A stretch of DNA of 64,000 nucleotides from Terriglobia bacterium (GCA_963695545.1 OY968796.1:832001-896000), one strand, 5' to 3'; shown: positions 41,138 to 61,913, counted from the stretch's first letter. Made by a program: numbers and translations. Notes: generated by a model from the letters alone, not told the origin.

Positions 41138-41234
41138 AACCATTACCTCCGTGTGTTCGCGTGACCGAATGACTTCCGCAAATTCCTCAATCAGTTCCTT
41201 CGTGTACGTTCGCGAAGCGCGTGATCGCAGCGCC

Positions 41235-44756: not shown

Positions 44757-46841
44757 TTATCCCGCGGACAGCGCGCGCGACACGGCTGCCGCGAGCCGCT
44801 CGCCATACGCTGTCCAAGAAAATTCTTCGGCTCGTCGCCGCGCCGCGTGCGCCATGTCCCGGCGACGCTCGGCATTGCAGTACAGCTCGACCAAGCGCTC
44901 GGCCAGCGGCTCGATCTCCCCGGCCGGCACGAGGAATCCTTCGATGCCGTTGCGCACCACTGAACCCGCGCTCGGCGTGGCAATTACGGGCAGGCCGGAC
45001 GCCATCGCCTCATAGGTCACCAGCGCCGAGCCTTCGTGCAGCGACGGAAGAACGAACACGTCGGCGCGGCGATAGATTTCGGCCAGCACAGCCTGCGAGG
45101 TTTGCGGCCGCCAGACGAACGTGTCGCGATAGCGTGGAAGCCAGTGCCCCCCGCCCACGATCTCTCCCACAAGTTCCAATTGGGCGTGGGGCAAATGCAA
45201 ACTGCGGAAAGCCTCGAGCAATTGCGCGATGCCTTTTGTTTGCGAGAGCCTGCCGACGAACAACACGCGAAAAACTCCGTCCGTGGCGCGTGGTTCGGGT
45301 GCGAAACGCTCGAGATCCGCGCCGAACGGCACATCCAAGATCCGTTCCGGCGCGGCGCCGGAAGCGAGCAGCGCCTCGCGCACGTAACCTGATGGCGCGA
45401 GAATGGCGTCGGCAAGGCGCATCTCTTCTCGATCTCTCGCGAGCCGCTCGTCCGACAAAGTCTCGGGATGCGGAAGCGAGTCCGCAAAATCGGGCCAGCG
45501 CTCGGCTTCGCGCGCGAAAAGATGCCGCGCGTGCAAGAGCGGTGCGCTGCTTTGATCGAGGATGGTGCGAATCCCCAGGCGATGCGCCGCGCGAAACGTG
45601 GCCATCGCGCAAGTATCGAAACAAATCACTCCGGCGGGACGTTCACGCTGGAGACAGCGCGCCACGCTCGAATCGAAAACACGGTTGCGCCAGCCCGATA
45701 GAAATTCCCAGTGCCGGCGCCCCGCGCGAAAACGCGTCGCTAGAAAGTAAGCGCCTTCAACCAATGGACGCGTGAGGATTCGTTCGGCTGGAATTTCGGG
45801 ATACGATCGCCGCGCGCACTGCCGCCGGAATTTTTCGGCCTGCGCCTCCGGAAGAAGCCGCAGCGCGCCAGCCAACGGCCCCGCAGCGGAAAAACGCACG
45901 CCGGTTACGAATCGCTTGAGCATGCCCGAGCGATTGAGCGCCACGGCCGCGCGCTCGCAATGCTGGCCGCCGGGATGCGCCAGCAAAACACTTTGTTGCG
46001 AGGAAGTACCTTCACCGGGTCGAACTCTCGACGGGCGAATCGGTGTGCACTCTCTCGCCGGGCCCGCCGGCTTCTGCGCCACCACCAACAGACGAAACGC
46101 GTGGCCGGCCACGCGTTCCCAGCGCTCATGTCGCCGCCGCAGCGCCCACACGATTCGGAAACGCGTTTCCTCAATCAATTGCTCGAGGTGCGTGGCACGG
46201 AAACGGAATGGATGGCAGAGCACGGCGAGCGTATCGCGATCGCGCCGGCCGGCGTAGGCGTGAAACTTGATGAGGCTCGCGATCGAAACCGTGTCGCATC
46301 CCAGAATCAAATAGCCGCCAGGACGCAAAATCCGAAAACATTCGCTCAACACCGCCGCGGGCGATTCGACGTGGTCGAGCACGTTGTATGAAGCCACGAT
46401 CGCAACGGAGCCCGTGTCCACAGGCAGATCTTCCCCGCGCGCTTCGATGTGCGTGTAATTGCGGCGGCATTCGGCGACCAGCGCGTGCATCGGTCGAGGA
46501 AGATCGATAGCGGGCGCGGCCGCGGGAAGCGGATCGACGCCGAGCAGGCTCCCTTCGGTTGAAAGAAAATGCAGCATGCCGATTCCCATCGGGCCGATGC
46601 CGACTTCTACTTTTTGTCCGTCACAACCAAGCAGCTCCGGCACAGCCGCCACCGCTTGATCGAGCGCGACAACCTTTTCGGCCAAAATGCGCGCCTGTTC
46701 GCGCAGCGAGCGGCGCGCGTGTTCCCAATAAATGGCTTCACCGCGCTGCGCGATTCGCCATCGCCCCGCATCCACGGCGAGAATGAGGTGCGCCGGGCCG
46801 GGAATGGCTTCAGATTTCATTTCAGGAGTTTCAAAGCGCAT
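44757..46841 (-). CDS. Fusion: SAM methyltransferase + GT4 glycosyltransferase
   Basis: N-terminal VEVGIGP, NVLDHV, ILRPGG; C-terminal FVGRLSQTKG, PSLHEGSALVTYEAMASG. Confidence 0.85.
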   Translation of the reverse strand: MRFETPEMKSEAIPGPAHLILAVDAGRWRIAQRGEAIYWEHARRSLREQARILAEKVVALDQAVAAVPELLGCDGQKVEVGIGPMGIGMLHFLSTEGSLLGVDPLPAAAPAIDLPRPMHALVAECRRNYTHIEARGEDLPVDTGSVAIVASYNVLDHVESPAAVLSECFRILRPGGYLILGCDTVSIASLIKFHAYAGRRDRDTLAVLCHPFRFRATHLEQLIEETRFRIVWALRRRHERWERVAGHAFRLLVVAQKPAGPARECTPIRPSRVRPGEGTSSQQSVLLAHPGGQHCERAAVALNRSGMLKRFVTGVRFSAAGPLAGALRLLPEAQAEKFRRQCARRSYPEIPAERILTRPLVEGAYFLATRFRAGRRHWEFLSGWRNRVFDSSVARCLQRERPAGVICFDTCAMATFRAAHRLGIRTILDQSSAPLLHARHLFAREAERWPDFADSLPHPETLSDERLARDREEMRLADAILAPSGYVREALLASGAAPERILDVPFGADLERFAPEPRATDGVFRVLFVGRLSQTKGIAQLLEAFRSLHLPHAQLELVGEIVGGGHWLPRYRDTFVWRPQTSQAVLAEIYRRADVFVLPSLHEGSALVTYEAMASGLPVIATPSAGSVVRNGIEGFLVPAGEIEPLAERLVELYCNAERRRDMAHAARRRAEEFSWTAYGERLAAAVSRALSAG

Positions 46842-46853: not shown

Positions 46854-48446
46854 CTACGCGCTGCGCACCACGCCCGACATCCAACGGCTCAGCACGCCCG
46901 ATTGCCATCGCAAGAAATGCCCGCAAGCCGTGGCCTCTGGCACGCGCAGGATCAGGCTGCCGAGGAAAAAAACTGCGATGCTCGCGCAGAATCCGCCGCT
47001 CACCTCGAGCCCAGAACCGACGCGCGGCACTTCCGTGGCCTGACCGAGAAGCGCGCCTGCCGCGGCGCCGGCCCAGCCGCTCACAACGCCGAGCGCGGTA
47101 AGCTCGAAAGCAAACGGCAACCATGCGCGCACATCCGCGAAACCCGCTCGGCCATAGAGCGCAGCGAGCAATGCCAGCGCGCACGACCAGCCGAGGATTG
47201 TATAAAGTGACGCGAGGCCGTCTGCGCCCCAGCGCGCGGCCCAAAGCGCTGCAACCGTCAGCGCTAAGCATCCTCCGAGGCTCACGATCGTCGGCAACCA
47301 AGCTTGCTGCCGGGCATAGAGCATTTTTTGTGCGTGGGTAATGATCACCACTGCCGGCGTTGATAGACTCAGCAGTCCAAACAACTGCGCGACGTGCGCC
47401 GAAGCCTGCGCGCCGAGGGCGCCGCGCTCCAGTAGCAACGCCACAATCGGACGGCGCAGTGCCAGCGCCCATGCGGCCGTGGGAGCCGCAAGAAATAAAC
47501 CCATGCGCAGTCCGCGCGTGCCCAGAGTTTCCAGATCCGCAGGCGCTCCCGTGGAGCGTTCGTCGGCGAAGCGCGGAAACAAAACCGTGGCCAGCGTCAG
47601 CGGCGCAAGCGAGATCAAAAGCCCGAGCTTGAATGCGTAGCCGAAAACAGCGAGACTTCCCGTCGGCAAACCCGACAACACGCGATTGATCACCAGCGGC
47701 GACCAAATTCCAGCAAGGAACATTCCCAGAAGAGGAATTGAAAGCGCGAGACCTCGGCGCACGTCCGGATCGCGAAGGCCGAACGCGAAACTCGCGCGCG
47801 CCCGATCTTTTCTGACCAGTGGAACAAGGCGACCGAGCGTCAGCGCGGAGCCCACTGCGACCGAGACGATCGTGGCGAAGATCAAAGGCCCGGAAGTCGC
47901 GCGCGCCGCAACCACCACGATCGCCGCGAGCAAAAGATTGCGCGCGAGTTGCGCAACCGAGGGCAGCCAGAAAATGCGTTGCGTATAAAGCAGCGCCGTG
48001 GCCACCCCGGTCACAACCAGCGGCGCGTAGGCCAATCCAATCCAGCGAACAAACGCCAAGGCTTCGGCGCGCCCAGGACCCGCGAGCCCTCCGGCCAGCA
48101 ACCACACCACGGCTTTCGGCCACAAAAATTGCGCCGCGCCAAACAGTCCCGCGCCGAGCAGAAAAACGTTGCCGATTCCCTGCGCCACGCGCCAGGCTTC
48201 CGCTGCGCCGCGCCGCGCCCGGCAATCCGTGAACACCGGCACCAGCACATGCGGCAGAATTTGCAGCACCAGCAGTTGTTGCCCCATCAGCAACAGCATC
48301 GAGCCGATGCGATATGCATCGGCGATGCTCGACGTGCCGTAGCGCCACGCCAAGGCCATCTCCACGGCCATGCCGGCCACCGGGCTCAGCAGCGAAAGAA
48401 TGGTGAGCGCGATTGCGGCGCGCGCCGTCTCGTAGGCCGGACGCAT
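46854..48446 (-). CDS. MurJ/MviN-like MOP flippase
   Basis: YGTSSIADAY, LVPVF, ATVLFP, LLERGA; about 14 transmembrane segments. Confidence 0.8.
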   Translation of the reverse strand: MRPAYETARAAIALTILSLLSPVAGMAVEMALAWRYGTSSIADAYRIGSMLLLMGQQLLVLQILPHVLVPVFTDCRARRGAAEAWRVAQGIGNVFLLGAGLFGAAQFLWPKAVVWLLAGGLAGPGRAEALAFVRWIGLAYAPLVVTGVATALLYTQRIFWLPSVAQLARNLLLAAIVVVAARATSGPLIFATIVSVAVGSALTLGRLVPLVRKDRARASFAFGLRDPDVRRGLALSIPLLGMFLAGIWSPLVINRVLSGLPTGSLAVFGYAFKLGLLISLAPLTLATVLFPRFADERSTGAPADLETLGTRGLRMGLFLAAPTAAWALALRRPIVALLLERGALGAQASAHVAQLFGLLSLSTPAVVIITHAQKMLYARQQAWLPTIVSLGGCLALTVAALWAARWGADGLASLYTILGWSCALALLAALYGRAGFADVRAWLPFAFELTALGVVSGWAGAAAGALLGQATEVPRVGSGLEVSGGFCASIAVFFLGSLILRVPEATACGHFLRWQSGVLSRWMSGVVRSA

Positions 48447-49300
48447 CAGCACACCCACTCGCGCGCGAAATAAGCGTGGGACGGCGGCGCGAGAGCCATG
48501 CGAGCAAAACCGTGTTGCCGGAGCAGGCGCTCGCAGGCGCCCAGGCTCTGTGCGCCGTGATACTCCATCACGATGCGCTCGATGCGATCGAGGACGGGCC
48601 GCGCGCCTTCGAGCGCTTCGAGTTCCGAACCTTCGACGTCGAGTTTCAGGAGATGAACGGCCGGAACGGCGTAGCAATCCAAAAGCGCTGGGAGCGTCGT
48701 CACATCCACGAAAATCTCAGACCACGCACTCGCCGATTCGTCCGCGCCTTTCTCCGTCATGGCCCCGGCCAGCGCCAGATGTCCGAGCGTCGATGCGTCC
48801 GATCGCCGGAACGCCGCTCGGCCCACCGCGCGTCCTACGGCTAAACGCAGCGCCGTAACCGCCGCAGCACCATTGCGCTCGAGATTTATTCCCAGACGAG
48901 CGAAGGTCTCAGGATCCGGCTCCAGCGCGAAAATCCGCGCGCAAGCGGCGCGCGCGGCGCGCAGCGAAAACATTCCGATGTTCGCGCCGCAATCGACCAC
49001 GCACCAACCCGGCCGCAGCGCGAACGCCGGATGCCGCTCGTACACAAGGTCTCGGAAAATTTCCTGATAGAGACACAACTCGCCGCCGCCGGGGCGCACA
49101 TGAATCTCCAACCCGCCGAGCCGAATCGCGCACTCGCCGTGCCCGCGAGAGCCCAGGCCCGCGCGGCCCAGCGCGCGTCGCGCGATATATCCGGCAAGCG
49201 CGCGATGCTCGGCGAATCCCCGCGCGTCGTGCCAGCAACCTGCCGCCGCGCGAAGCATCGGCTTGAAGTGACTCCATTCCGTTTGGGCGGCATTGCTCAC
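48446..49300 (-). CDS. FkbM family methyltransferase
   Basis: VVDCGANIG, ALEPD, LLKLDVEGSE; GTGA overlap start. Confidence 0.9.
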   Translation of the reverse strand: MSNAAQTEWSHFKPMLRAAAGCWHDARGFAEHRALAGYIARRALGRAGLGSRGHGECAIRLGGLEIHVRPGGGELCLYQEIFRDLVYERHPAFALRPGWCVVDCGANIGMFSLRAARAACARIFALEPDPETFARLGINLERNGAAAVTALRLAVGRAVGRAAFRRSDASTLGHLALAGAMTEKGADESASAWSEIFVDVTTLPALLDCYAVPAVHLLKLDVEGSELEALEGARPVLDRIERIVMEYHGAQSLGACERLLRQHGFARMALAPPSHAYFAREWVC

Positions 49301-49911
49301 GATCTCGCTCCCGCTCTGGCTGCGCGCGCGAATCGGCCGGCGCCGCGGCCCAGGTTCGACAAAATCCACGCCGCGGCGCGCGGCAGATCTTCGGCGCGCG
49401 CATCGGGTCTCGCGCCGCGAACTTTGGCGGACGCGCGCGTCGCGGCGCGTAGCGGTCGCGCCGCCGCTCTCGGACCGACCAGAATCGTGCGGCATCCCGC
49501 GGCGCGGCCCGCGGCGATGTCTTTCGCGGAATCGCCAACCAGAAACGAGCCGCGCAAACTCACACGCCATTGCCGCGCGGCGTCCAGCAGCAAGCCCGGC
49601 AGCGGCTTCCGGCACTCACAATGATCGGCGTCGCGATGCGGGCAAACGTAAATCCCGTCCAGCTCGATTTCGCGGTCGAGCGTCTGGTGCATGCGCTCAA
49701 GTTCCGCGGCGTGCAAGCGCCCGCGCGTGAGTTCGGGTTGGTTGGTGACCACCAAAGCCAATAAGCCCGCGCGGCGCAGCTTCCGAACCGCGCGCGCCAC
49801 GCCGGGCAGCACGGCGAAGTCCGCAAGGCGCAGCGGCGAAAGCCAGCGGCCGTCGCGACGCACCAGCGCGTTCAGAACTCCGTCTCTATCGAGAAACAGT
49901 GCTCGCCGCAT
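49297..49911 (-). CDS. gmhB: GmhB-like sugar bisphosphate phosphatase (HAD IIIA)
   Basis: FLDRDGVLN, VTNQP, CPH....CECRKP, VGDS..D. Confidence 0.88.
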   Translation of the reverse strand: MRRALFLDRDGVLNALVRRDGRWLSPLRLADFAVLPGVARAVRKLRRAGLLALVVTNQPELTRGRLHAAELERMHQTLDREIELDGIYVCPHRDADHCECRKPLPGLLLDAARQWRVSLRGSFLVGDSAKDIAAGRAAGCRTILVGPRAAARPLRAATRASAKVRGARPDARAEDLPRAAAWILSNLGRGAGRFARAARAGARS

Positions 49912-50527
49912 GAGCCCTTTTTCTTTCGGCGCCGGCGCGGATGCGCTCGGCCACGCAGAAGGTCAGCAGGTGATGAATCACAACGTGAAAGGATTCAACG
50001 TGCGGCGTGGTGTGATACGGCACGATCACCGCGGCGTCGGCCAATTGGCGCATGGCCCCGCCGGTGAAACCGGCCAGGCCAATCGTTTGGCCGCCGTGCT
50101 GCTTTGCGAATTCCATGGCGCGCAATAAATTCTGCGACCACAATCCCGCGCGATCGCGCCCGCTGCCGCCATGCACGCTGATCGCGATCAGCAGATCGCC
50201 CGGGCGAAACAGCGTTTCGAGCTGCCGCAGATAGACGTTTTCCCAGCCGTCGTCGTTCACCAGCGCGCTCATCAGCGGCGCGTTGTCTCCGAGCGAGAGC
50301 ACGCGCAAGCGCGGCTGGTGCGGCACGATCGTGCACTTGAACAAATCCGCGGCCAGATGCGTGGCCGTGCCCGCCGAGCCGCCATTGCCGCAGGTGAACA
50401 CCGTGGCGCCGCGCTGCCAGGCCTCCCACAGCAGCTCAACGGCGCGGTCGAGAGATGCGCGGTCGATTTTTTCCGTGATCTCCTTCACACCCCGAAGGTA
50501 CTCGCCGATATATTCTCCGTTGCGCAT
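49886..50527 (-). CDS. gmhA: GmhA-like phosphosugar isomerase (SIS domain)
   Basis: TCGNGGSA..A.H, ND.G, AISVHG, ES.H; AAGGAGG RBS. Confidence 0.85.
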   Translation of the reverse strand: MRNGEYIGEYLRGVKEITEKIDRASLDRAVELLWEAWQRGATVFTCGNGGSAGTATHLAADLFKCTIVPHQPRLRVLSLGDNAPLMSALVNDDGWENVYLRQLETLFRPGDLLIAISVHGGSGRDRAGLWSQNLLRAMEFAKQHGGQTIGLAGFTGGAMRQLADAAVIVPYHTTPHVESFHVVIHHLLTFCVAERIRAGAERKRAHAASTVSR

Positions 50528-50569
50528 ATTGCGCCTCCTTCAGTCATCCAGTCGTCTTTCAATCTTTCG

Positions 50570-51577
50570 TTACGCATCGATTCGCACCACAGCGTTCGTG
50601 CGCGCCGATTCGTACGCCGCGGCCGCCAGACGTAGCGCCTGCCAGCCGTCCCAACCGCTCGCTTCTGGAGCGCGCTCCTCGCGAATGGCGGCCGTAAATT
50701 CCGCCCACTCCGCGGCCCAGGAGGTGTCTTCGCCCAGAAATTCGATTTGCTGTTCCGCCGGGGCGCCGCTTGCGCGCCGCTCGCCGATCACCAGGCGCTC
50801 CGGTCCGTAGCTGCCGCCTAATCCTTCGATCTCGATGTAACCGCTTTCGCCGAACACCTCGAACGAAAATAGGTTCTTCCACTGCGTCCAGCTTGCGTGC
50901 AGACTCGCGGTAACGCCTTCGGCGGTGCGCAGCAAACAAAACGCGTTGTCTTCCACCGCGATCGGCCAGTACGCCGACGAAACCATCGCGGACATTTCCG
51001 AGAATTCGCCGGCGAACCAGCGAAACAAATCGAGCGCGTGCACGCCCTGATCGAGCAATTCGCCGCCGCCGGAAACGCGATCGGCGCGCCATTCATGCTC
51101 GTAGCCTGTGCGTCCGCCGTGACCGTAGCGGCAACGCAGCAAGAGAATCCGCCCGATGCGGCCCTCGCGCGCCAGGCGATGCGCCTCCGCAATGGCCGGG
51201 TGATAGCGGTGATTGAAACCGGTCTTGAGAGCGCGCTTGGCGCGCGCCGCGACAGCCACCAGATCGGCCGCTTCCTCAGGAGTGCGCGCCAGCGGCTTTT
51301 CGCAAAGCACGTGCTTGCCGGCCTCGAGCGCCGCTTTCGCCACCGGCGCGAGCCATTGGTGCGGCGTCGCGACGATCACCGCTTCCACGTCGCGCGCGGC
51401 AACGAGCGCTTCGGACTCTGCATACACGCGCGATCCAAACGCGCGCGCCATCACTTCGGCGCGCCCCGCGTCCACGTCCGCCACGGCCACGAGGCGCGCG
51501 CCGCCGGCGCGAGACAACACTTCCGCGCGCCGCGCTCCCGCGCGTCCCGCTCCGACGATGCCGACGCCAAGCGTCAT
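50570..51577 (-). CDS. Gfo/Idh/MocA family oxidoreductase
   Basis: GIVGAG, ATPH, CEKP, GGGELLDQGVH. Confidence 0.92.
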   Translation of the reverse strand: MTLGVGIVGAGRAGARRAEVLSRAGGARLVAVADVDAGRAEVMARAFGSRVYAESEALVAARDVEAVIVATPHQWLAPVAKAALEAGKHVLCEKPLARTPEEAADLVAVAARAKRALKTGFNHRYHPAIAEAHRLAREGRIGRILLLRCRYGHGGRTGYEHEWRADRVSGGGELLDQGVHALDLFRWFAGEFSEMSAMVSSAYWPIAVEDNAFCLLRTAEGVTASLHASWTQWKNLFSFEVFGESGYIEIEGLGGSYGPERLVIGERRASGAPAEQQIEFLGEDTSWAAEWAEFTAAIREERAPEASGWDGWQALRLAAAAYESARTNAVVRIDA

Positions 51578-52446
51578 CGCGCCTCAAGCACTTCGGTGAA
51601 TTTGCGCCCGTCGATCCGGCGCAGTGTGTAGAGCGACGTGCGGCACAATTCAATGGACCGCCCGCCCAGCGATCTCCAGTCGTCCCAAACCGCGCTGATC
51701 AATCGCCCGGTGATTCCGGCGGCTGCCGGCGAGGCCAAAAACACCGCAAGTTCCGCCGCGCGCTCCGGCGGCGTGCCGCCGGAAGCTTTTTGTTCGAGCG
51801 TCTTCTTGTAAAATTCGGCGCCGGCGCGTTCTCCCGCCGCAAGCACTTCGTCGACCAGACGCGTGTTCACCGCGCCCGGCGCGATGGCATTCACGCGCAC
51901 GCCCGCGTCGCGCACTTCTTCCGCCACGGTTTCGGTCAATCGCACAACGGCGGCCTTTGACGCGCTGTAGGCGGAAAATCGCGGAAATGGCGCGACCGCG
52001 CCACCGCCGGAAAAATTCACGATCACGCCGCTGCGTTGCTCCACCATGCGCGGCAGCACAGCGCGCATCGCGTAAGCCGTGCCCAGCAGGTTCGTCGCGA
52101 TCGCCGCGCTCCAGGCCTCCATGTCGGCGTCAGCCAGTGGACCGATCGGGCCGTACACACCGGCTGCGTTCACCAGCACATCGAGCCGGCCAAACATCTG
52201 CAGCACGCCCATGACCGCGCGCTGCATATCGCCTGGCTCGGCCACGTCGGCTGAAAACGCCTGTGCGCGCGCGCGGCCCGCGCTCAGTTCGTGCGCGACG
52301 CGCTGCAGATGAGCCGATGGCCGCGCGACAAGCGCGACATCCGACCCTTGGCGCGCAAACGCACGCGCCACGGCGCAGCCGATGCCGCGGCTTGCGCCTG
52401 TGACCATTACCACCGAGCGTGCCGCCGCGGCGCCAGCGTGATTCAC
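51574..52446 (-). CDS. Classical SDR oxidoreductase
   Basis: TGASRGIG, VNAAG, YSASK, NAIAPG. Confidence 0.92.
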   Translation of the reverse strand: MNHAGAAAARSVVMVTGASRGIGCAVARAFARQGSDVALVARPSAHLQRVAHELSAGRARAQAFSADVAEPGDMQRAVMGVLQMFGRLDVLVNAAGVYGPIGPLADADMEAWSAAIATNLLGTAYAMRAVLPRMVEQRSGVIVNFSGGGAVAPFPRFSAYSASKAAVVRLTETVAEEVRDAGVRVNAIAPGAVNTRLVDEVLAAGERAGAEFYKKTLEQKASGGTPPERAAELAVFLASPAAAGITGRLISAVWDDWRSLGGRSIELCRTSLYTLRRIDGRKFTEVLEAR

Positions 52447-53777
52447 AGGGCACGCTCCGCCCGCGATCGTGATTCCGCGCGCCCCAAACCCACGCCCCAG
52501 TAGGCCAGGCCTGCGGCTCCCGCGGCGCTGCGATCGAGAAAATTGTGCGCGTCCACCAGTACCGGCCGCGCGAGCGACGCGCGCAGCCGCGCGAAATCCA
52601 GAGCGCGAAATTCCGGCCACGGCGTCATTAGAACCACGGCGTCAGCGCGCTCGGCCGCCTGGTAGGGATCGGCGGCCAGCGTCACTCCGCGCGTTTCCGC
52701 GCACTCCGCGTGCACCTGCGGATCGTGCGCGCGCACCTGCGCGCCCATGCGCGTCAATCGCGCGGCGAATTCAAGAGACGCCGAACGGCGCAGTGTGCTG
52801 GTGCCCGGCTTGTAGGTCAGTCCCAGCAGCGCAATCGTCGCGCCACGCAATCCTCCGCAAGCCCCCGCCACGCGCTCCGCAAGACGCGCCAGCCGTCCTC
52901 GATTTACCTCGAGCGCGGCGTCCAGCAGCCGCGTGGGAAGCGAAGCGCGCGCCCCCAAGCCGCGCAGCGTCTGCACATCGCGCGCCAATGTGCCGCCGCT
53001 GAAGCCAGGCCCCGGATCGAGAAACGCCTGCGGGCCGATGCGTCGGTCGCGGCGAAGCACCTGCATCACTTCGCGCACATCCGCGCCGGAGACCTCCGCC
53101 AGATCGGCAAGTTCGTTCGCGAAGCTGATGGAACTGGCGAGAAAAGCGTTTACGGCGTGTTTTGAAAGCTCGGCGCTTTCCCAGCTCATGGGTAGCGCGT
53201 GCGTCGAAATTCCCCGGTACAGGCGCAGAAATTCCTGCGCGTCGTCCGGCTCGTCGGCGCCCACCACCAGAAAATCCGGTGCGAGAAATGTTTCGAGTGC
53301 GCGGCCCAGGCGAAGATTTTCAGGCTGATAGATCAGCCGCGCCGCAAGCGCCGGCGCTTCGCGCAAGCGCATCTGAAGTTGCGCGAGTGTTCCCGCCGGA
53401 ACCTGACTCATCACCACGATGAACACGCCCCGCGGCATTCGCGGCGCCTCTTCGACTATGGCGTCTACGGCGTTAAGAATCGGCGTGAGATCGCTGTGAT
53501 CGTTTTCGTCCACCGGCGTGTCGAACGTTACGTACACGGCGTCAGCGCCTTCGACCGCTTGCGCAACCGATGCCACAAATTGCAATCGTCCCGCGGCCTG
53601 CTCGCGCCGGACGGCTTCGGCCAAGCCCGGCTCAAACACCGGCGGCTCGCTGCGCTCAAGCGACGCGACCGTTCGCGTGTCCGGGTCGGTTGCGCGTACG
53701 GTGTGTCCGAGAGACGCGAGACCCGCGGCCGCAACCGTGCCCAGATGCCAGAGTCCGATTAGGCCGATGCGCGCCAT
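52443..53777 (-). CDS. UDP-glucose/GDP-mannose dehydrogenase family protein lacking the catalytic Cys
   Basis: FEPGL, DTP, PENLR.G, AELSKHAVNAFLA, GLTYKPGT; GFSGGTLARD where GxGGxCxxKD is canonical. Confidence 0.88.
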   Translation of the reverse strand: MARIGLIGLWHLGTVAAAGLASLGHTVRATDPDTRTVASLERSEPPVFEPGLAEAVRREQAAGRLQFVASVAQAVEGADAVYVTFDTPVDENDHSDLTPILNAVDAIVEEAPRMPRGVFIVVMSQVPAGTLAQLQMRLREAPALAARLIYQPENLRLGRALETFLAPDFLVVGADEPDDAQEFLRLYRGISTHALPMSWESAELSKHAVNAFLASSISFANELADLAEVSGADVREVMQVLRRDRRIGPQAFLDPGPGFSGGTLARDVQTLRGLGARASLPTRLLDAALEVNRGRLARLAERVAGACGGLRGATIALLGLTYKPGTSTLRRSASLEFAARLTRMGAQVRAHDPQVHAECAETRGVTLAADPYQAAERADAVVLMTPWPEFRALDFARLRASLARPVLVDAHNFLDRSAAGAAGLAYWGVGLGRAESRSRAERAL

Positions 53778-54802
53778 GCGTGGTCTCCATTTCCATTGCT
53801 GTAGCCGGCGCCATTGCTCAAATTGGCGACGACTTTTGTGCCCTCGAAATCGAACCGGTAACGCATTTCGCGCAGGCCGGCCGCGCGCATGGCCTCGCGC
53901 AATTGCTGGTGCTTGCTCTCGGTGTAAAAAACGAAGAAGCCGCCGCCGCCGGCGCCGGAAATCTTTCCGCCCAGCGCCCCGTTCTGCTTGGCCAATTCGT
54001 AAAGTTCGTCGAAACGCGGATTCGAGACGCGGTTTGAGAGTTTTTTCTTGGCTTGCCAGTGGCGATCGAGTTCGCAGCCAAAGCGAGTCAGGTCTCCCGC
54101 TTCCAACATCTCGCGGATGCGGTAGCCCACCTCCTTGATTGCGTGCAGGCTCTCGGTGACCGGGGAGTGCGCGAGCGTCGCGCCGCGGCTTTGTTCGTCA
54201 AGGATCGCCAGACTCGAGCGTTCCGTGCCGGTATAGAACGCCAGCAGATTCCGCCCCAGGTCTTCCAGCGTGGCTTCGGAGATCTGCGCGCGATTCACCT
54301 CAACGTTGCCGTCGCGATCGATTTCAAGCATCGTCAATCCGCCGAATGACGCCATGTACTGATCCTGTTTGCCGATGGGCTTGGCCAGGATCTCGATTTC
54401 CAGGCGGCAGGCTTCTTCGGCCAGCGTGCGGTATTCAACCGGCGTGCGGCACAGTGTGTGCAGCGCATGCAACAAACCGACTGCATAGCAGCTTGAAGAT
54501 CCGAGCCCCGTGCCCGCCGGCACGTCGGCCATCGAAGTGATCTCGATGCCGCGCTCGATGCCCGCAAAGCGCAGTGCCTCGCGCGCGATTTCATGCTGCA
54601 GATCGTCTCGATGCGTCACGGTTTCCGAGCGCGAATATTTCACGCGCACCAAATCGTCCACCACCGGGCGATTCACGTTCACGAACATATATTTGTCGAT
54701 GGCCGCGGCCAGGATGAACCCGCCGTAGCGCGAGTAGTAACTCGGCAAATCCGTTCCGCCGCCGCCGAGCGTGATGCGAAACGGTGTGCGCGTGATGATC
54801 AT
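53759..54802 (-). CDS. GHMP sugar-phosphate kinase (HddA/LmbP-like)
   Basis: IITRTPFRITLGGGGTD, PAGTGLGSSS, GKQDQY, GKISGAGGGGF. Confidence 0.9.
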   Translation of the reverse strand: MIITRTPFRITLGGGGTDLPSYYSRYGGFILAAAIDKYMFVNVNRPVVDDLVRVKYSRSETVTHRDDLQHEIAREALRFAGIERGIEITSMADVPAGTGLGSSSCYAVGLLHALHTLCRTPVEYRTLAEEACRLEIEILAKPIGKQDQYMASFGGLTMLEIDRDGNVEVNRAQISEATLEDLGRNLLAFYTGTERSSLAILDEQSRGATLAHSPVTESLHAIKEVGYRIREMLEAGDLTRFGCELDRHWQAKKKLSNRVSNPRFDELYELAKQNGALGGKISGAGGGGFFVFYTESKHQQLREAMRAAGLREMRYRFDFEGTKVVANLSNGAGYSNGNGDHAWRASA

Positions 54803-54857
54803 CGGCGCCCCGCGCTTTTCGCGCCGTTCGGAAATCGCGTGCGCGTCCGCTGCGGCG

Positions 54858-55979
54858 TCATGCGTGCACCGCTGAGCGGCGCAGCACGCCGCGCGCGGCC
54901 ATTTCCGACGCGGCCTGCTCGGTCGAATCCGGCACATCGTCTTGTTGCCTTGCCCAATCGACGTACTCCGCCACAATCTGTTCCACCGCGGCGCGCGGCC
55001 GCCAGCCGAGTCTGCCAATCTTCGCACTCGACGAAATCGTGTGGCGCGGATCTCCCACGCGGAATTCTCCGCGCTCAATCGGCTCGAGATTCTCGCCGCA
55101 GGCTTGGGTCACCAGACGCGCGAATTCCCTCACCGTGACGCCACGCTCGCCGCCCACGTTGAACACCTCAAAATCCGCCGCCGGATTTTCGAGCACGGCC
55201 ACGTGCGCCGAAACCACGTCCTGCACGTGCACGTAATCGCGCAACTGGCCTCCATCTTCGTAAATAATCGGCGCCTTTCGATGCAGCAGGCGCTGCGTGA
55301 ATGTCCGGCACACTCCGGAATACGCGTTGTGCGGCGAATTGCGCGGCCCTTGCACGATTGAGTAGCGCAGCGCCACGGTCGGAATGCCGTAACGCCGGCC
55401 CAGCGCCAGGCCCAGCATTTCAAGCGCATATTTTGAGATGGCGTACGCGGTGTGCGGATTGGCCGACGATTCATCGAGCGCTGCCGGCGTCATCACGCGC
55501 TTGCATTCGCGGCAGGTGTGTTCCCATTCGCCGCGCTCGAGCTGCTCGATCGAGCGGGGCGCTGGATACGCAATGCCGTGCTCCGCGCACGCGTAGCGCC
55601 CTTCGCCGTAAACCGATTGCGAACTTGCGAGCACGACCTTCCGCAGTGCAAGCCGGCGCGCAACCGCGATCTCGTAGAGCAGCGCGGTTGACGCGGCATT
55701 GACGCTGATAAAGGTGCTGAAGTCCGGCATGTAATCCTGATAAGCCGCCAAATGAAAGACGGCGTCGACGCCGTCGAGCGCGCGCTCCCAGGCACCCCTG
55801 TCGCGCACGTCGCCTTCGATGAATTCCGCATCGCGCGCGAGATATTCAGGCTGCCCCGCGCGGTGCACGCGCGTTTGCAGGCTATCGAGCACGCGCACGG
55901 CATAGCCGCGCTCGAGCATGCGGTCCACCGTGTGCGACCCGATAAATCCCGCGCCGCCGGTGATCAGAATTCGTTTCAC
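54858..55979 (-). CDS. NAD-dependent epimerase/dehydratase with Cys/His-rich insertion
   Basis: TGGAGFIGSH, ASSQSVYG, YAISK, RDYVHV. Confidence 0.9.
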   Translation of the reverse strand: MKRILITGGAGFIGSHTVDRMLERGYAVRVLDSLQTRVHRAGQPEYLARDAEFIEGDVRDRGAWERALDGVDAVFHLAAYQDYMPDFSTFISVNAASTALLYEIAVARRLALRKVVLASSQSVYGEGRYACAEHGIAYPAPRSIEQLERGEWEHTCRECKRVMTPAALDESSANPHTAYAISKYALEMLGLALGRRYGIPTVALRYSIVQGPRNSPHNAYSGVCRTFTQRLLHRKAPIIYEDGGQLRDYVHVQDVVSAHVAVLENPAADFEVFNVGGERGVTVREFARLVTQACGENLEPIERGEFRVGDPRHTISSSAKIGRLGWRPRAAVEQIVAEYVDWARQQDDVPDSTEQAASEMAARGVLRRSAVHA

Positions 55980-56009
55980 GCGCCCAGCCTCGTTTCTTTC
56001 ATCCGCGTT

Positions 56010-57471
56010 TCAATACGCTCCGCGGCCGCGCAGTACCGCGGGAATGGTTTTCAGCAGAATCTTGCAATCCAGCCACAACGACGCCGAAGCGATGTATTCC
56101 AGATCCATTCGCGCCCATTGCTCGAAGCTGCGGATTTCGCTGCGGCCGTTGACCTGCCACAGGCAGGTGATTCCCGGCTTGATGCTCAATTTGCGCCGCT
56201 GCCAGAATTCATATCGCTGTGCTTCTTCCGCGAATGACGGGCGCGGCCCCACCAGGCTCATGTCGCCTTTGAGCACGCTCCACAGTTGCGGCAATTCGTC
56301 CAGGCTGTACTTGCGCAGAATTCGCCCCAGCGGAGTCACGCGCGGATCATTGCGCAGCTTGAATACCGGCCCGTCCATTTCGTTTTGCGCGAGAAAAGCC
56401 GGTTTCAGCTCCTCGGCATTTGTGACCATGGTTCGGAATTTGTAGCCGGTGAACGGCTTCTTGTTGATGCCCAGCACGCGCCAGCGAAAAAAAAATCGGG
56501 CCGTCGGGCGAGGTCAGCCGAACCAGAGCGGCGATCAGCAGGAGCAGCGGCGCAAGCAGCACCAGCAGCGCTGCCGACACGCCCACGTCCAGAATTCGTT
56601 TGGCCGCGCGATAGCTCTCAGGCCGGTCAAGATCAGAAAGTGCCACCGCCGGGCAGCCTGCCACCGGCTCCAGACGCACATCGCGCCATCCCTGCGTGTA
56701 CCCCAGCCGCGGCAAATAAAAATCCGGCAGCACGGCCACGCGCAGGCCTAATTCCAGCGCCGCTTCGATGTGCGCGCGGCAGTTCGGCACGCGCTCGGCC
56801 GGCATGGCCAGAACCACCAGATCCACCGGATGATCGAAAAGATAAGCGCCGATTCCATCGGTTGAACCCAGCAGCGGCGCGCCTTCGATTTCCGGCGGAG
56901 CCGCATCGGGTTCGGGATCGAAGCAGCCCACCAGTTGGTACTCGCAGCTTTCGGTCGATAGCGCGGCGCGCATGAATTCTCGCGCGCGTTCGCGCGTGCC
57001 GATCACGGCGATGCGCACGATGTTGTAAATGTGCGAGCGGCGCGCGCGAAACCATCCGAGCAGTGCTCCGCGCACGGCAAGCGTCGCCGGCACGGCCACG
57101 AGCGAAAAACCGAACACCAGCAGCCGGCTGGTGGTCGCGGCTTTGAACGTGAAAATCAAAAGAGCCAGCGCCGCAAGTCCCAGCAGCGTTGCGCGTATGG
57201 TTTGCCCCAACGCCGCGCCCAGTGGAATTCGCCGCGCCGCCAATAATCCCGCGCGCTCATACAGCGCATACCAGAGCGGAAGAATGATCAGCAGCATCCA
57301 GGCGAATTCTCGGAAGGGTCCGACGCGCGTTGGATCGTGCCGCAGATACGGCCGGTAAAGCGGCAGCGCGCGGTACGACGCATAAAAGCACGCCGAAAGC
57401 GTGGCCGCTTGCGCCACGGCCAAGGCGCGCCGCGCGATACGTGCTTCGAACAATTCGCCTCTGAGATTCAC
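56010..57471 (-). pseudogene. Priming polyprenyl-phosphate glycosylphosphotransferase (WcaJ/CpsE-like), frameshifted at a T9 tract
   Basis: N-terminal TM part and AKRILDV...GPIFF lie in one frame; YKFRTM, DPRVT, SLDELPQ, GDMSLVGPRP lie in another. Removing one base from the A9 run at 56487-56495 joins them as PIFFRWRVLG. Confidence 0.85.
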
Positions 57472-57505
57472 CGCAATCGCTCCTGCTCGGATTTGTTCCA
57501 GTCGC

Positions 57506-58195
57506 TTACTGTCCGGCGCGCGCTGCGGCCGCGGCCGTAAACGCGCGCGCGGCGTCTGCGTTAAATTGCCGCACGGTCTCGCGGCTGTATTTGTGGTCCA
57601 CCATCTTCGGCAGCATGGCCGGTGGAATGGTGATGATGTCCGCGCCGGCCTCGGCCGCGCGCTGCACGTCCATCACCGAGCGAATGCTTGCCACAAGCAC
57701 GCGCGCCTGAGATTCCCAGCGCCGCAGCCACTGCTGAAGCCCCGCGATCAACTGCGCGGGGTCGTGGCCTTCGTCCGCGACGCGCCCCGCGAACACGCTC
57801 ACGTAACAAGCGCCGGCCTTGGCCGCGAGCACCGCTTGATTGAAGGAAAGAATTGCCGTGGCGTTCACCGGAATTCCCGCGCGGCTGAGCGCGTAAATCG
57901 CTCGCAGGCAGGAATCGCCGTCCTGCGTGACGATCGGAATTTTCACGACCACATTCGACGCCCAGCGCGCAAACGCGCGGCCCTGCTCGATCATCTGCCC
58001 TGGCTCGCTCGCGGTGACTTCTACTGAGAGCGGGCGATGACCCAACAACGCCGCAAGTCGCCGCGCCATGGATTCCAGATCGCTCGCGCCATCCTTCAAT
58101 AAAATGCTGGGATTCGTGGTCACGCCGTCGACCACGCCTTCGGCCAGCCAGTGCGTCAATTCCTTTTCATCCGCGGAATCGAGAAAAATCTGCAT
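57506..58195 (-). CDS. Transaldolase (short TalC/FSA family)
   Basis: FLDSA, TTNPS, SVEV (Glu), VVKIP (Schiff-base Lys), VNAT, YVSVFAGR (Phe, transaldolase type); AAGGAG RBS. Confidence 0.9.
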   Translation of the reverse strand: MQIFLDSADEKELTHWLAEGVVDGVTTNPSILLKDGASDLESMARRLAALLGHRPLSVEVTASEPGQMIEQGRAFARWASNVVVKIPIVTQDGDSCLRAIYALSRAGIPVNATAILSFNQAVLAAKAGACYVSVFAGRVADEGHDPAQLIAGLQQWLRRWESQARVLVASIRSVMDVQRAAEAGADIITIPPAMLPKMVDHKYSRETVRQFNADAARAFTAAAAARAGQ

Positions 58196-58247: not shown

Positions 58248-60617
58248 TCACGCCGCGCTGCTATGCCCCGGCTTCTCGTCTTCTCCGTAATAGTCGTAGC
58301 GGTAATAGCGGTAGTAGTCGTCGCCGGAACGCACGTCGAGATTGTTCAGCACCACGCCGATCAGATTCGCGCCGACGTCTTCGGCGTAACTCTGCGCGCG
58401 CTGAGCCAGCTCGCGCGGCGTCACGCCGCCTTTGACCACCAGAATCACGCCTTCCACCAGCGTCGCGAGAATGCGCGCGTCGGAAACGTTCAATAGAGGC
58501 GGCGAATCCACCACCACGAACTGATACTCGCCGCGCGCCTCGTCGAGCATCGCGCGCATGCGATCTGAGGAAAGCAACTCCGCGGGATTCGGCGGCACCG
58601 GACCGCACACCAGCGCGTCCAGATTTTCTACGCCCGATGGAATCACTGCTGCGCGCCAATCCTTCTGGCCCGTCAGATAACTCACCAGGCCCAGTCCATT
58701 CGCAAGACCCAGCGCCTTGCGAATACTCGGCCGCCGCATGTCGCCATCGATCAGCAACACGCGCTGATTGAGCTGCGCGAGTGAAATCGCCAAATTCACC
58801 GAGACCGTCGTCTTGCCCTCCGATGGACGCGGGCTCGATACCAATAACGTGCGCGGCGGCTGGTTCGCGCTCGAAAGCATCACCGAAGTGCGCAACCCCC
58901 GAAACGCTTCGCCCAGCGCTGCCGGAGGCTCGATGCCGCCCGCGATGCGATACCAACTTTTCGCCGCGCCGTCCGCGCCTCGCGAATGACCGTTGTCGCC
59001 ATTTCCGTTCGCCGCGACAGTTCCATTCGCGCGCGATTCGCTCCCATCCGCGGTCGCGCCGCGATCCGCCAGGCCATACACGCCGTGACGCTGCCCGTTC
59101 AGCGATTCAACCGAAGGAATCAGACCGAGCGCCGGAAGTCCTAGATACCGCTCGATGTCCTCCGAAGATTTCAAACTGTTGTCGAGATGCTCCTGCAAAA
59201 ACGCTCCGCCCACGCCGAGGCCCAGTCCCAGCACGAACGCCAGCGCCAAATTCAGCGGCAGATTGGGCCTCGCCGCCTTACGCGGCGCTACGGCCTCGTC
59301 AACCACGCGGATATTGCTGGCCTTCAGACCGGCTGAAACGCCGGTTTCCTTCAAGCGCTCGAGCAACCCTTCGTAAAGCTGCCGGTTGGTGTCCACTTCG
59401 CGTTTCAAAATGTTGTATTGCACCGAACGCGAAGCGATCTGATCGGCGTCTTGCTGTTGCGCGCCGAAGGCCTGCTGCACCAAATCCTCGCGGCGCACCG
59501 CGGCCTGATAATCGTTGGTCAATTGATCGGCGGCGCGCTGGCGTTCGCGCGCGATCACGCTGGTGATTTTGTCCTCCTGATTTTGTAGCTCCTGAACTTT
59601 GGGATAATCGGCCGTGAAGGTGGTCTCGAGTTGCGCCTTTTGTCTTTCCACATCGGTTAGTTGCTCGGTCAGATCCTCGATCAGCTTGTTGTCCGCCACG
59701 CCCGGCAGCGCGTCGATTTGACCCGCTTGCACCAACCGATAGAGCGATTCCTTTTCATATCGATCTGCCTGTGCGCGCGTCAATTCTTCCTGTAGCTGCC
59801 GCAACCGCTCGTCCACAATGTTTTCTTCCGAGCCTTTGTCGTCCTGCAGATAAAGCAAACCGTTCGCTTGCGCATACGCTTGCATCTGGTTTTCGGATAT
59901 CTCGAGGCGCCCCTTCAAATCGTCGAGTTGCTGCGTCAGCCACTCGGAAGCCCGCTGCGTGGCGTCCCAACGAACGCGCAGATTCTCGTCGATGTCGGCT
60001 TCCGCCAGCGCGTTCACGATGCGCGCCGCCAGCGCCGGATCGCTCGACTCGAAACGAATCTCCACCAGGCGGCTCAACTTCACCGGCTCAACCGACAGCC
60101 GATCCTGAAACACGCCCAGCGCGCGCTCCACCGCCAGCGGATCCGGTGGCGCCATTTGACCGCCCAACACTCCTTCGCCGGCGACCGCGCCCTTGGCCTT
60201 CGGGTTAAATTCCGGCAGCAGGTCCAGTCGCAGTTGCACAATCACCTGCCGCGCAAGCGTGTCGCTCTGCAGAATTTTGTACTCGGTCTCGAGATACGTG
60301 TCCGAAACGGTTTCGAGCTGAAACAGTTCCTGCACGCTCAAAATGTTCGGATTCTCTTTCTCGATTTCAAGAAGCGCGCCGGATTGATAGATCGGCGTTT
60401 CTCTGAGCGTGCCCACCAGCACCAGTGTGAACAGCACGGCGAGGACCGTCAGCACTGTCCACCGCCGCTTGCGCAGCACGCGCCAATAACTCAGAAGGCT
60501 GGTCGATTCCTGCATGTCGAGCGTCGCCGGCCGAATCGCCCGCAGCGCGCGCAAGCGCTCCAGACTCTTGGGAGCCGGCTCGTAGCGCTGGATTTTCGTT
60601 TCCTGCTCGTTCGTCAT
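58248..60617 (-). CDS. wzc: Wzc polysaccharide co-polymerase / BY-kinase (alternative start TTG 60659)
   Basis: Two transmembrane segments flanking a coiled coil, PSEGKTT Walker A, IDGDMRRP, VVDSPP, Tyr cluster YYRYYRYDYY. Confidence 0.93.
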   Translation of the reverse strand: MTNEQETKIQRYEPAPKSLERLRALRAIRPATLDMQESTSLLSYWRVLRKRRWTVLTVLAVLFTLVLVGTLRETPIYQSGALLEIEKENPNILSVQELFQLETVSDTYLETEYKILQSDTLARQVIVQLRLDLLPEFNPKAKGAVAGEGVLGGQMAPPDPLAVERALGVFQDRLSVEPVKLSRLVEIRFESSDPALAARIVNALAEADIDENLRVRWDATQRASEWLTQQLDDLKGRLEISENQMQAYAQANGLLYLQDDKGSEENIVDERLRQLQEELTRAQADRYEKESLYRLVQAGQIDALPGVADNKLIEDLTEQLTDVERQKAQLETTFTADYPKVQELQNQEDKITSVIARERQRAADQLTNDYQAAVRREDLVQQAFGAQQQDADQIASRSVQYNILKREVDTNRQLYEGLLERLKETGVSAGLKASNIRVVDEAVAPRKAARPNLPLNLALAFVLGLGLGVGGAFLQEHLDNSLKSSEDIERYLGLPALGLIPSVESLNGQRHGVYGLADRGATADGSESRANGTVAANGNGDNGHSRGADGAAKSWYRIAGGIEPPAALGEAFRGLRTSVMLSSANQPPRTLLVSSPRPSEGKTTVSVNLAISLAQLNQRVLLIDGDMRRPSIRKALGLANGLGLVSYLTGQKDWRAAVIPSGVENLDALVCGPVPPNPAELLSSDRMRAMLDEARGEYQFVVVDSPPLLNVSDARILATLVEGVILVVKGGVTPRELAQRAQSYAEDVGANLIGVVLNNLDVRSGDDYYRYYRYDYYGEDEKPGHSSAA

Positions 60618-60692
60618 CGTGCCGCCCTTCGCGTGGTCTCGTGCCGCGTGTTCATTCAAATCTCCGACGACGCTTCGTCCGTGCCGCGCCGC

Positions 60693-61787
60693 TCAAAACG
60701 GGTGATAGATCGCGATGCCCGTGGTGATCTGCACGAGCGCCTCGCTGCCGCGATACAATCCCGATCGCGCGGCGCTGTTCGGCACGAAAACGATGTCGCG
60801 CGCTTCCAGTTCGGGATCTGTCTCTTTCCCGCTCAGAACTTTTCCCAGATTGAGTGGAATCTCGATGCGCTTTCCGGTCGCGGGATCCGTGCGGATGATG
60901 CGCGCCTGGCTGCGCGCCGCCGTGGACGTCAAACCCTCGGCCAGCGAAATCGCCTGCAACACCGAAATGTTGGCGTTGGCGTGCAGGGCGAACCCGCCCG
61001 GCCTGTGCACTTCGCCGACCACGTACACCGTACCGGCCTCGCCCACCTTCACGACGTCTCCCGGAAAAACCAGCACGTTGCTTTTCGTGTCGTCGCCTTC
61101 GAGAAGTCCTGCGATGTTGACTTCCGTGGTTAGCCCCGCTTGCGGCGCCGGGTCGTCCACCGCCGCCTCCGCAGATGCCGTTTGATTCACGCCTCCTCCG
61201 CGCACGATCGTCGCTGTGTCGCCCGCGTCGTCGGCTAGGCCCCCGGCCATCGAGAGCACCTCAATCAGCGATTTCGCTCCGCGAATCTGATACACATCGG
61301 GCTTGACCACTGCGCCGAACACCGAAACCCCGTGGCTTTCCATTTCCTTCACGAACACCGTCACTTGCGGATTTTTCATATAGTGAGCGCGCAGCTCGCC
61401 CGCGAGCGACTCCTCAACGTCCTGCGGCGTCTGCCCGGCCACCGGCACCGCGCCGAGCAGCGGCAATGAAATATCTCCGCCGGCGGAGACGCGAACCGTG
61501 CGGCTCAGGTCCGGCACGCCGAACACCGAAATGTCCAGCAAATCCTCAGGACCAATGCGATAGCTCGCCACTTCCGGTGGCAACGCGCGCCGAAGCTCGT
61601 CGAGGCGGCGGTTGATATCCGCCGATGTTCCGCCTTGCCAGGATTCCGCCGCGCTGGCCGGCGAAGATGAACGAGCTGGTGATGAAGATGGAGACGACGA
61701 TGTCTGCGCAAACATCCACGGACACGCCACGCCGAGAGCGCAACTGCCCAACGCCAGAACCGCGACGACAAATCCGCGCACGGACAT
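60693..61787 (-). CDS. wza: Wza-like polysaccharide export protein with SLBB domains
   Basis: YRIGPEDLL.I.V, G.ISLPL.G, NPQVTV, V.GEV.RPG, DIVFVP. Confidence 0.9.
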   Translation of the reverse strand: MSVRGFVVAVLALGSCALGVACPWMFAQTSSSPSSSPARSSSPASAAESWQGGTSADINRRLDELRRALPPEVASYRIGPEDLLDISVFGVPDLSRTVRVSAGGDISLPLLGAVPVAGQTPQDVEESLAGELRAHYMKNPQVTVFVKEMESHGVSVFGAVVKPDVYQIRGAKSLIEVLSMAGGLADDAGDTATIVRGGGVNQTASAEAAVDDPAPQAGLTTEVNIAGLLEGDDTKSNVLVFPGDVVKVGEAGTVYVVGEVHRPGGFALHANANISVLQAISLAEGLTSTAARSQARIIRTDPATGKRIEIPLNLGKVLSGKETDPELEARDIVFVPNSAARSGLYRGSEALVQITTGIAIYHPF

Positions 61788-61913
61788 CACTTTTCCCCCA
61801 CTCACAATCGGTCTTGGAACGTTCGCTGCGCGCCCCCGCTTCTTCTCAGGACGCTCTCGGGTTCGGGAAGAGTTCAGAAATGGAACTCAACCCAGGCGCT
61901 TTCACCCTACCTA

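Follow-up and report, generated by a model that had tools for sequence, protein, structure and literature searches.

Gene content of the cassette and its operon

We analysed a window of 64,000 nucleotides (GCA_963695545.1 OY968796.1:832001-896000) from a Terriglobia bacterium, a soil acidobacterium of the Ca. Acidiferrales type. Eight genes lie between wzc and the flippase gene of a Wza/Wzc/flippase exopolysaccharide (EPS) operon, all of them intact, co-oriented and overlapping, and they belong to the eight families that an earlier, sequence-only reading of this DNA had named. The features are listed below from high to low coordinates; the substrates and products given here and in the following sections are those that we infer.

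60693-61805, minus strand: Wza-type polysaccharide export protein (PF02563 + SLBB; context)
58248-60659, minus strand: Wzc co-polymerase/tyrosine kinase (Wzz, GNVR, AAA_31; context)
57506-58195, minus strand: small transaldolase (PF00923), pathway-dedicated; LmbR-like role, likely octulose-8-P maker
56010-57471, minus strand: WcaJ-like priming glycosyltransferase (PF13727 + PF02397), within the cassette run
54858-55979, minus strand: NAD-dependent epimerase (PF01370) with a Cys/His-rich insertion; LmbM-like role, likely C4 epimerase
53759-54802, minus strand: GHMP anomeric kinase of the LmbP/HddA family, transaldolase-linked clade
52443-53777, minus strand: oxidoreductase of the UGD family, with Thr263 for the catalytic Cys and the motif GLWHLG; LmbL-like role, probably forming a keto-sugar and not a uronate
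51574-52446, minus strand: classical SDR (adh_short); likely terminal ketoreductase in the LmbS slot
50570-51577, minus strand: Gfo/Idh/MocA oxidoreductase (domain match); LmbZ-like role
49886-50527, minus strand: SIS ketose-aldose isomerase of the LmbN/GmhA family, divergent from GmhA
49297-49911, minus strand: HAD bisphosphate phosphatase of the LmbK/GmhB family, GmhB-like
48446-49300, minus strand: FkbM-family methyltransferase (PF05050, TIGR01444), overlapping the HAD gene (context; possible O-methylation)
46854-48443, minus strand: MurJ/Wzx-type flippase (PF03023; start uncertain; context)

Intergenic gaps across the cassette do not exceed 55 bp and several gene pairs overlap; the start of the SDR was inferred from the GTGA overlap with the stop of the UGD-like gene. 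The epimerase carries the motifs ASSQS and YAISK and has the UDP-glucose 4-epimerase 4zrm as its top PDB match, and the SDR carries TGASRGIG and YSASK. A sigma-70 promoter was sought upstream and none was found. All eight genes recur in the same order in a sister genome, with 74-98% identity.

The surrounding operon has the complement of a Wzx/Wzy-dependent EPS locus, namely Wza, Wzc, a priming glycosyltransferase, a flippase, glycosyltransferases and a polymerase-like membrane protein. Pfam gives no match for the polymerase candidate (43221-44729), and a Wzy_C protein is encoded at 33056-34606. The priming glycosyltransferase inside the run and the FkbM gene between the HAD gene and the flippase had gone unmentioned in the earlier reading. 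A single surplus base near 56487 breaks the frame of the priming glycosyltransferase. This base is missing from the contigs of all four runs examined, all from one study, and the gene is a single frame in two further genomes (G003 and G005). Therefore, we concluded that the frameshift is an assembly error and rejected the idea of a pseudogene.

Putative tailoring enzymes and the nested architecture of the cassette

The UGD-like protein lacks the catalytic Cys, as had been claimed: the Cys position of GxCxPKD aligns to Thr263, a residue shared by all 34 family members that were aligned, out of 120 matches. Its AlphaFold model (pLDDT 93.6; TM 0.91 to UgdG 4a7p) shares its fold with the UDP-glucose 6-dehydrogenases (UgdG, BceC, human UGDH), and the protein keeps their catalytic residues as Lys206, Glu153 and Asp267. 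It differs from these enzymes in the Cys-to-Thr change and in having GLWHLG for GxGYVG, where the Rossmann-loop Tyr is replaced by His; the two changes together make a second oxidation to a uronate unlikely. An ESM Atlas search with this protein returned generic UGD clusters alone. Judged by the UGD mechanism, the residue pattern would suit an enzyme that oxidises a secondary alcohol at C6, a group present only in sugars of seven or more carbons.

We searched for the module in other genomes, as the sequence-only reading had suggested, and it recurs across many bacteria and some archaea. The Cys-less UGD family was found at 459 GTDB loci, in Acidobacteriota, Patescibacteria, Chloroflexota, Planctomycetota, Verrucomicrobiota, Proteobacteria and archaea. 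Among the 80 UGD-like loci retained for comparison, which include no Actinomycetota genome, the Gfo gene lies close to the UGD-like gene in 68. Rhizobium jaguaris CCGE525, which is in culture and is not a pathogen, has a complete nine-gene set.

In the lincomycin octose route LmbS transaminates the 6-keto group. Among 82 loci this slot holds an SDR in 47, an extended SDR in 18, both in one and neither in 16 (six Gmd rows among the 36 of a cluster labelled 'epiB' were removed prior to the count). SDR and extended SDR are thus mutually exclusive in the reductase slot. A DegT-type aminotransferase was found at 7 of 109 UGD-like loci, each time at least about 8 kb away, and none is present at this locus. 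These data support the proposal that an SDR stands in the aminotransferase position, as a ketoreductase fills the LmbS slot in most of the surveyed loci.

The cassette is nested. Among 52 kinase-anchored stretches, 32 hold only the transaldolase-isomerase-kinase core, eight add Gfo and SDR without the UGD-like gene, one adds the SDR only, and the 11 that have the Cys-to-Thr UGD-like enzyme all have Gfo as well. Loci with Gfo and SDR that are devoid of the UGD-like gene suggest that oxidation-reduction (epimerisation) without dehydration is possible.

The transaldolase, the kinase and the length of the sugar chain

The transaldolase retains D6, N28, E59, K85, S133, S170 and R172. Its E59, K85 and SVF motif align with the Thermotoga and Thermoplasma transaldolases and set it apart from fructose-6-P aldolase (FSA); we take E59 to be the Glu acid/base, K85 the Schiff-base Lys and the SVF Phe the replacement of the FSA Tyr. 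In a quick tree it fell outside the group of 25 housekeeping TalC proteins, and the cassette transaldolases form at least two deep groups. The genome (G000) holds a second, full-length housekeeping transaldolase, and the suggestion that the cassette copy is its sole transaldolase was rejected. It also holds a separate hddA-hddC-gmhA-gmhB block.

We observed a close tie between this transaldolase and the cassette kinase. Among 201 genomes of the host's order, 37 of which have the kinase, all 23 with a cassette-type transaldolase also have it, and in 12 of the remaining 14 kinase genomes a different transaldolase subtype adjoins the kinase. Across 301 Acidobacteriota genomes a transaldolase accompanies 15 of 20 stretches with a cassette-type kinase but only one of 38 with another HddA-like gene; on full 20-kb stretches the figures are 12 of 14 and 0 of 22. 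The significance of these counts is overstated because related genomes are not independent. At transaldolase-anchored metagenome loci with at least 8 kb downstream, the kinase was seen in only 14 of 27. Whole genomes place the two genes as much as 19 kb apart within one cluster, and together with the 23 genomes this largely rejects a mere passenger of the EPS operon.

The main alternative to an octose is an NDP-heptose with a modified side chain, in which the transaldolase merely raises the level of sedoheptulose-7-P (S7P) and the Gfo, UGD-like and SDR enzymes epimerise or deoxygenate C6 (or C4). This reading is unlikely but has points in its favour. The best characterised matches of the SIS protein, the kinase and the HAD protein are heptose enzymes, the active site of the transaldolase is ordinary, heptoses too have a secondary C6-OH, and the one HddC-like gene of the genome sits in its heptose block. 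Against it, the kinase scores 169 bits with its best NCBIfam model, HddA (cut-off 600), and the SIS protein 105 bits with GmhA (cut-off 209), so that neither qualifies as the equivalog. The transaldolase-linked kinases form one clade of their own (54 rows, FastTree support 0.998), and the genome carries the cassette on top of its heptose block and its housekeeping transaldolase. The earlier reading had allowed for the transaldolase as a general S7P supplier; this is contradicted by the co-inheritance and the kinase-locus counts, which show it to be dedicated to the pathway. As S7P is a central metabolite, a co-inherited transaldolase would point to a different ketose phosphate.

We looked for residues diagnostic of chain length and found none in the cassette enzymes compared. 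SIS Asp61 and Glu178 occur in 58 and 57 of 58 cassette proteins, respectively; they were rejected as a signature since they are present in 9 of 14 SIS proteins from transaldolase-free loci. Alignment of the kinases gave merely three weakly differing columns. Beside the active site, the cassette transaldolases share Ala114 for Leu, Leu/Met116 for Phe, Val/Ile134 for Pro and Thr207 for Gly, and all four substitutions are absent from 25 of 25 housekeeping TalC. They could speak for another acceptor, arabinose-5-P or hexose-6-P, giving a differently configured octose with unrelated tailoring, or a nonose; this is improbable, as the lincomycin pathway with this family set uses ribose-5-P (PMC7014725).

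No nucleotidyltransferase is encoded at this locus or in any of 18 sister stretches, and searches of 8 of 10 related genomes gave none of the LmbO/HddC type. The lone HddC-like gene of this genome lies 1.4 Mb off, at G000:2276092. The cassette might therefore be incomplete here or feed a non-EPS product (another glycan or a small molecule), which we hold to be improbable given the eight intact genes conserved in order and sequence in the sister genome, the overlaps of cassette genes with each other and with downstream EPS genes, and the priming glycosyltransferase within the run.

Proposed product and comparison with known systems

We give about even chances to the reading that the eight genes together form a single conserved cassette for a nucleotide sugar, probably a C8 sugar whose side chain is reworked, destined for the Wzx/Wzy-type exopolysaccharide of this bacterium. 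A C8 chain as such is somewhat probable, while an 8-deoxy product is a tentative and rather doubtful refinement. The transaldolase would move the C3 unit of fructose-6-P (F6P) or S7P onto ribose-5-P to give octulose-8-P, which the SIS protein would isomerise to octose-8-P and the GHMP kinase and HAD phosphatase would convert to octose-1-P. Activation would come from a nucleotidyltransferase encoded elsewhere, most likely the HddC-like gene mentioned above. The epimerase may then invert C4, and Gfo with the Cys-less UGD-like enzyme may oxidise C6 and most likely strip the C8 hydroxyl. The SDR would act at the step where LmbS transaminates and reduce the 6-keto group; the result would be a neutral NDP-8-deoxy-octose that a GT4 of the operon could use.

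To our knowledge, straight-chain C8 aldoses have been described chiefly from antibiotics, and the ribose-5-P route of lincomycin is the sole characterised pathway with such a family set. The literature searched, mostly outside subscription journals, contained neither a description of this cassette nor a report of a straight-chain octose in a surface glycan. An octose product would mean that a whole class of surface sugar has been overlooked, its synthesis mis-annotated as that of heptose or uronate.

The GDP-D-glycero-alpha-D-manno-heptose pathway (GmhA, HddA, GmhB, HddC; Campylobacter, and Burkholderia wcb capsule tailoring) shares the SIS, GHMP kinase and HAD families and a surface-glycan product. 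The cassette differs from it in the dedicated transaldolase, the separate kinase clade, the sub-cut-off kinase and SIS scores and the Cys-less UGD-like plus Gfo tailoring, and HddC is not in the locus.

The lincosamide GDP-octose pathway of Streptomyces lincolnensis and S. caelestis has seven of its nine families in common with the cassette, a likeness at family level. LmbR and LmbN make the C8 sugar from ribose-5-P plus F6P or S7P (PMC7014725), and GDP-octose is converted to GDP-lincosamide via LmbM, LmbL, CcbZ and CcbS (PMC12945683). The families of LmbK, L, M, N, Z, P, O and R in Table 2 of PMC4351081 match those considered here. The R, N, P, K, M, L and Z families claimed by the sequence-only reading were all matched; the LmbO equivalent is missing, so the locus does not hold the full Lmb set. 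Lincosamide proteins are similar in size (CcbR 222, CcbL 436, CcbN 202 and CcbP 323 aa; PMC4351081, supplement 1), and a transaldolase heads the gene run in both (lmbR-S-O-P-Z; PMC7014725). In contrast, the cassette has an SDR in place of the LmbS aminotransferase, an epimerase of 373 aa with a Cys/His insertion instead of 325 aa, no carrier-protein fusion, annotated neighbours without the LmbC/D/E/T/V machinery, and an EPS operon setting. Published lmbN-region primers had no match in the genome or metagenome contigs scanned, and no Lmb protein was among the PDB matches of the cassette proteins. As the best non-lincosamide match of CcbL is just 33% (PMC4351081, supplement 1), LmbL may fall outside the Thr family. 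The direction of antibiotic chemistry used for EPS, as first proposed, is probably to be reversed, since glycan loci with the cassette are far more widespread than lincosamide clusters.

The Coxiella burnetii O-antigen region CBU0673-CBU0681 is annotated as phosphatase, phosphoheptose isomerase, transaldolase, two epimerases, NADH-dependent dehydrogenase, UDP-glucose dehydrogenase and epimerase. By annotation alone, it resembles a cassette variant with two epimerases, the UGD-like enzyme, Gfo and an extended SDR. It differs in that a reversed HldE-like protein, CBU0678, takes the place of the GHMP kinase and of the nucleotidyltransferase. Its product has a genetic link to virenose, and the word 'octose' has no occurrence in a 2026 review of C. 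burnetii LPS. We tentatively suggest, though with less than even confidence, that a widespread primary pathway supplies octoses to bacterial and archaeal surface glycans (plain, side-chain-epimerised or 8-deoxy according to swappable Gfo, UGD-like and SDR enzymes), that the lincomycin sugar route was recruited from it, and that the Coxiella region is its HldE-type variant. An octose product would moreover show where lincosamide chemistry came from and provide new enzymes for rare sugars.

Locus and genes in the window

The host genome is a single contig of 4.16 Mb whose closest named relatives are Ca. Acidiferrales MAGs, and the DNA of the window also occurs in soil metagenomes, all from one study. 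The eight genes named by the sequence-only reading (transaldolase, NAD epimerase, GHMP kinase, UGD-like, SDR, Gfo/Idh/MocA, SIS and HAD; 49297–58195) were all found intact on the minus strand, with intergenic gaps of ≤55 bp and several overlaps. This cassette is bordered by wza–wzc on one side and by an FkbM methyltransferase and the flippase on the other; beyond the flippase lie GT4/GT2 glycosyltransferases, methyltransferases and a Wzy_C protein. A WcaJ-like priming glycosyltransferase, located between the transaldolase and the epimerase, has its frame broken by an extra base in a homopolymer run at 56487. As this base is missing from the contigs of 4/4 short-read runs and the gene is one frame in two sister genomes, the split is an assembly error.

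Other features of the region were as follows. A CpsB/CapC-type PHP phosphatase (62048–62794, plus strand), divergent from wza, is likely the Wzc phosphatase. A second NAD-dependent epimerase/dehydratase in the same operon (40163–41143, minus strand; 89% identical in the sister genome G003) has LegB as top NCBIfam match (194 bits, under cut-off); its substrate could be either the cassette product or a different sugar. Two long minus-strand ORFs combine GT4, GT2 and methyltransferase (35810–38893, 1027 aa) and methyltransferase and GT4 (44757–46841, 694 aa); the latter may be a genuine fusion, since its G003 match spans 686 aa. Together with FkbM and 41235–42182, these ORFs suggest a heavily methylated EPS.

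The cassette genes are additional copies in this genome. It has a separate full-length transaldolase, several further UGD-family genes (at least two retaining the catalytic Cys) and a kinase–nucleotidyltransferase–SIS–phosphatase block at 2.275–2.278 Mb. A second large glycan cluster (G000:C1:2245535-2285990; gene labels partly assigned by reading sequences) contains two GmhA-like genes, HddA, HddC, GmhB, a TPP-dependent E1 alpha/beta pair and a DegT-like aminotransferase.

Association of the transaldolase with the kinase

We anchored the transaldolase control on the kinase, to avoid circularity. The kinase search gave 61 matches in 301 Acidobacteriota genomes, from which 58 stretches were taken after omitting the window's own locus, one duplicate of an earlier-collected locus and one fragment. 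Transaldolase was present in 15 of the 20 top-scoring stretches versus 1/38 of the remainder (12/14 versus 0/22 among full 20-kb stretches); these counts carry no p-values because related genomes are not independent. The transaldolase-linked kinases form a single clade (support 0.998). Among 201 genomes of the order, 23 have the window-type transaldolase and 37 the cassette kinase; all 23 have both, and in 12 of the other 14 kinase genomes another transaldolase subtype adjoins the kinase. A contrary result was that only 14/27 transaldolase-anchored metagenome loci with at least 8 kb downstream had the kinase; in whole genomes it lies as far as 19 kb from the transaldolase in the same cluster.

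Cassette transaldolases retain every catalytic residue, fall outside 25 housekeeping TalC proteins (SH-aLRT 100, quick tree) and split into at least two deep groups. At L222, L224 and L228 (loci from other genomes; 10001–14200), a window-type transaldolase is followed directly by gmd and an fcl-like gene, and related loci add a C-methyltransferase-like ORF; the arrangement may encode a second deoxysugar route, with C-methylation, within these same clusters.

The UGD-like protein and tailoring genes

The predicted model of the UGD-like protein has the UGD fold (pLDDT 93.6; TM 0.91 to UgdG). Aligned to UgdG, it retains Lys206, Glu153 and Asp267, with Thr263 at the catalytic Cys and GLWHLG versus GTGYVG in the Rossmann loop. 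Thr263, Trp10 and His11 are invariant across 34 homologues selected from 120 matches. Read against the mechanism of UGD, this residue pattern fits an enzyme that oxidizes a secondary alcohol once, to the ketone, rather than one that forms a uronate.

A motif search of GTDB contigs confirmed 459 UGD-like loci, and the family is patchy (6/301 Acidobacteriota genomes). Neighbours at 80 of these loci, and at the 38 of at least 20 kb, were Gfo (68; 36), kinase (52; 28), SDR (50; 21), transaldolase (48; 26), HAD (48; 29) and SIS (47; 26); a nucleotidyltransferase cluster is present at 31/80. The complete nine-gene set occurs on plasmids of two cultured organisms, amid LPS genes in the first:

L097, 8564–16915: nine-gene cassette, Lawsonia intracellularis plasmid 3
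L098, 10544–18435: nine-gene cassette, Rhizobium jaguaris plasmid

The R. jaguaris transaldolase scores above the TIGR02134 'transald_staph' cut-off, and therefore TIGR02134 includes glycan-pathway enzymes. At L265–L267 and L270 (about 8500–11700), several family members have HAD and SIS in what appears to be a single fused ORF of 417–452 aa.

Among 52 kinase-anchored stretches, some genomes being represented repeatedly, 32 had only the core (transaldolase, SIS, kinase), eight added Gfo and SDR, and one SDR only. The UGD-like gene was present in 11, all with Gfo. The stretches with Gfo and SDR lacking the UGD-like gene show that this pair can function without that enzyme. The reductase beside the UGD-like gene was a classical SDR at 47 of 82 loci and an extended one at 18; one locus carried both, and 16, many of them truncated, carried neither. 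DegT-type aminotransferases occurred at 7/109 loci with the UGD-like gene, in every case about 8 kb or more away from it. Both counts support the earlier proposal of an SDR-type reductase in the aminotransferase (LmbS) slot.

Sugar activation, proposed route and known systems

No nucleotidyltransferase was found in the window locus, nor the cassette type in 18 sister stretches bearing the window-type transaldolase. Its profile matched HddC-like genes in the host genome and G003, and gave no match in eight other genomes (91–99% complete), in five of which the PF00483 genes were labelled, by reading their N-termini, as GlgC-, RmlA-, ManC-, GalU-, RfbF- and GlmU-like. Sugar activation in the window lineage must be supplied in trans.

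In the most likely route, all of it inferred chemistry, the transaldolase would form octulose-8-P, converted through octose-8-P and octose-1-P to NDP-octose. After C4 epimerization, C6 would be oxidized and C8 probably deoxygenated, followed by reduction by the SDR and transfer into EPS. A 6,8-dehydration is part of the lincosamide pathway. A C8 product is somewhat favoured, the full octose route ending in EPS has an even chance, and the 8-deoxy detail is tentative. That the product is a modified heptose is rather unlikely. Another acceptor or chain length is improbable, and so, to the same degree, is an incomplete cassette or another destination. The window kinase and SIS score far under the HddA and GmhA cut-offs; on the tests applied, the locus falls outside the canonical heptose pathway, and its UGD-like protein outside UGD.

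We found no description of the cassette in the literature searched, which left out most subscription journals. The tests made in this analysis covered the control anchored on the kinase, co-inheritance across whole genomes, the nesting of the tailoring genes, the absent nucleotidyltransferase and the error in the assembly.

Coxiella CBU0673-0681 resembles the cassette by annotation: passages in PMC5843353, PMC13552124, PMC13252051, PMC5423948 and PMC7549970 give a similar family set and an HldE-like enzyme required for phase I LPS. The region cuts both ways, being a lead, yet the review passages on Coxiella LPS name no octose. Against the Lmb families and roles in the relevant parts of PMC4351081 (including supplements 1 and 3), PMC7014725 and PMC12945683, the suggested lincomycin family set held for seven of nine families, LmbO (nucleotidyltransferase) and LmbS having no counterpart. 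The published top non-lincosamide matches of Ccb proteins, several of them from Acidobacteria, lie at 33–49%, with CcbL lowest at just 33% (PMC4351081). The window locus, not assigned as a member of that pathway, may by analogy work like it.
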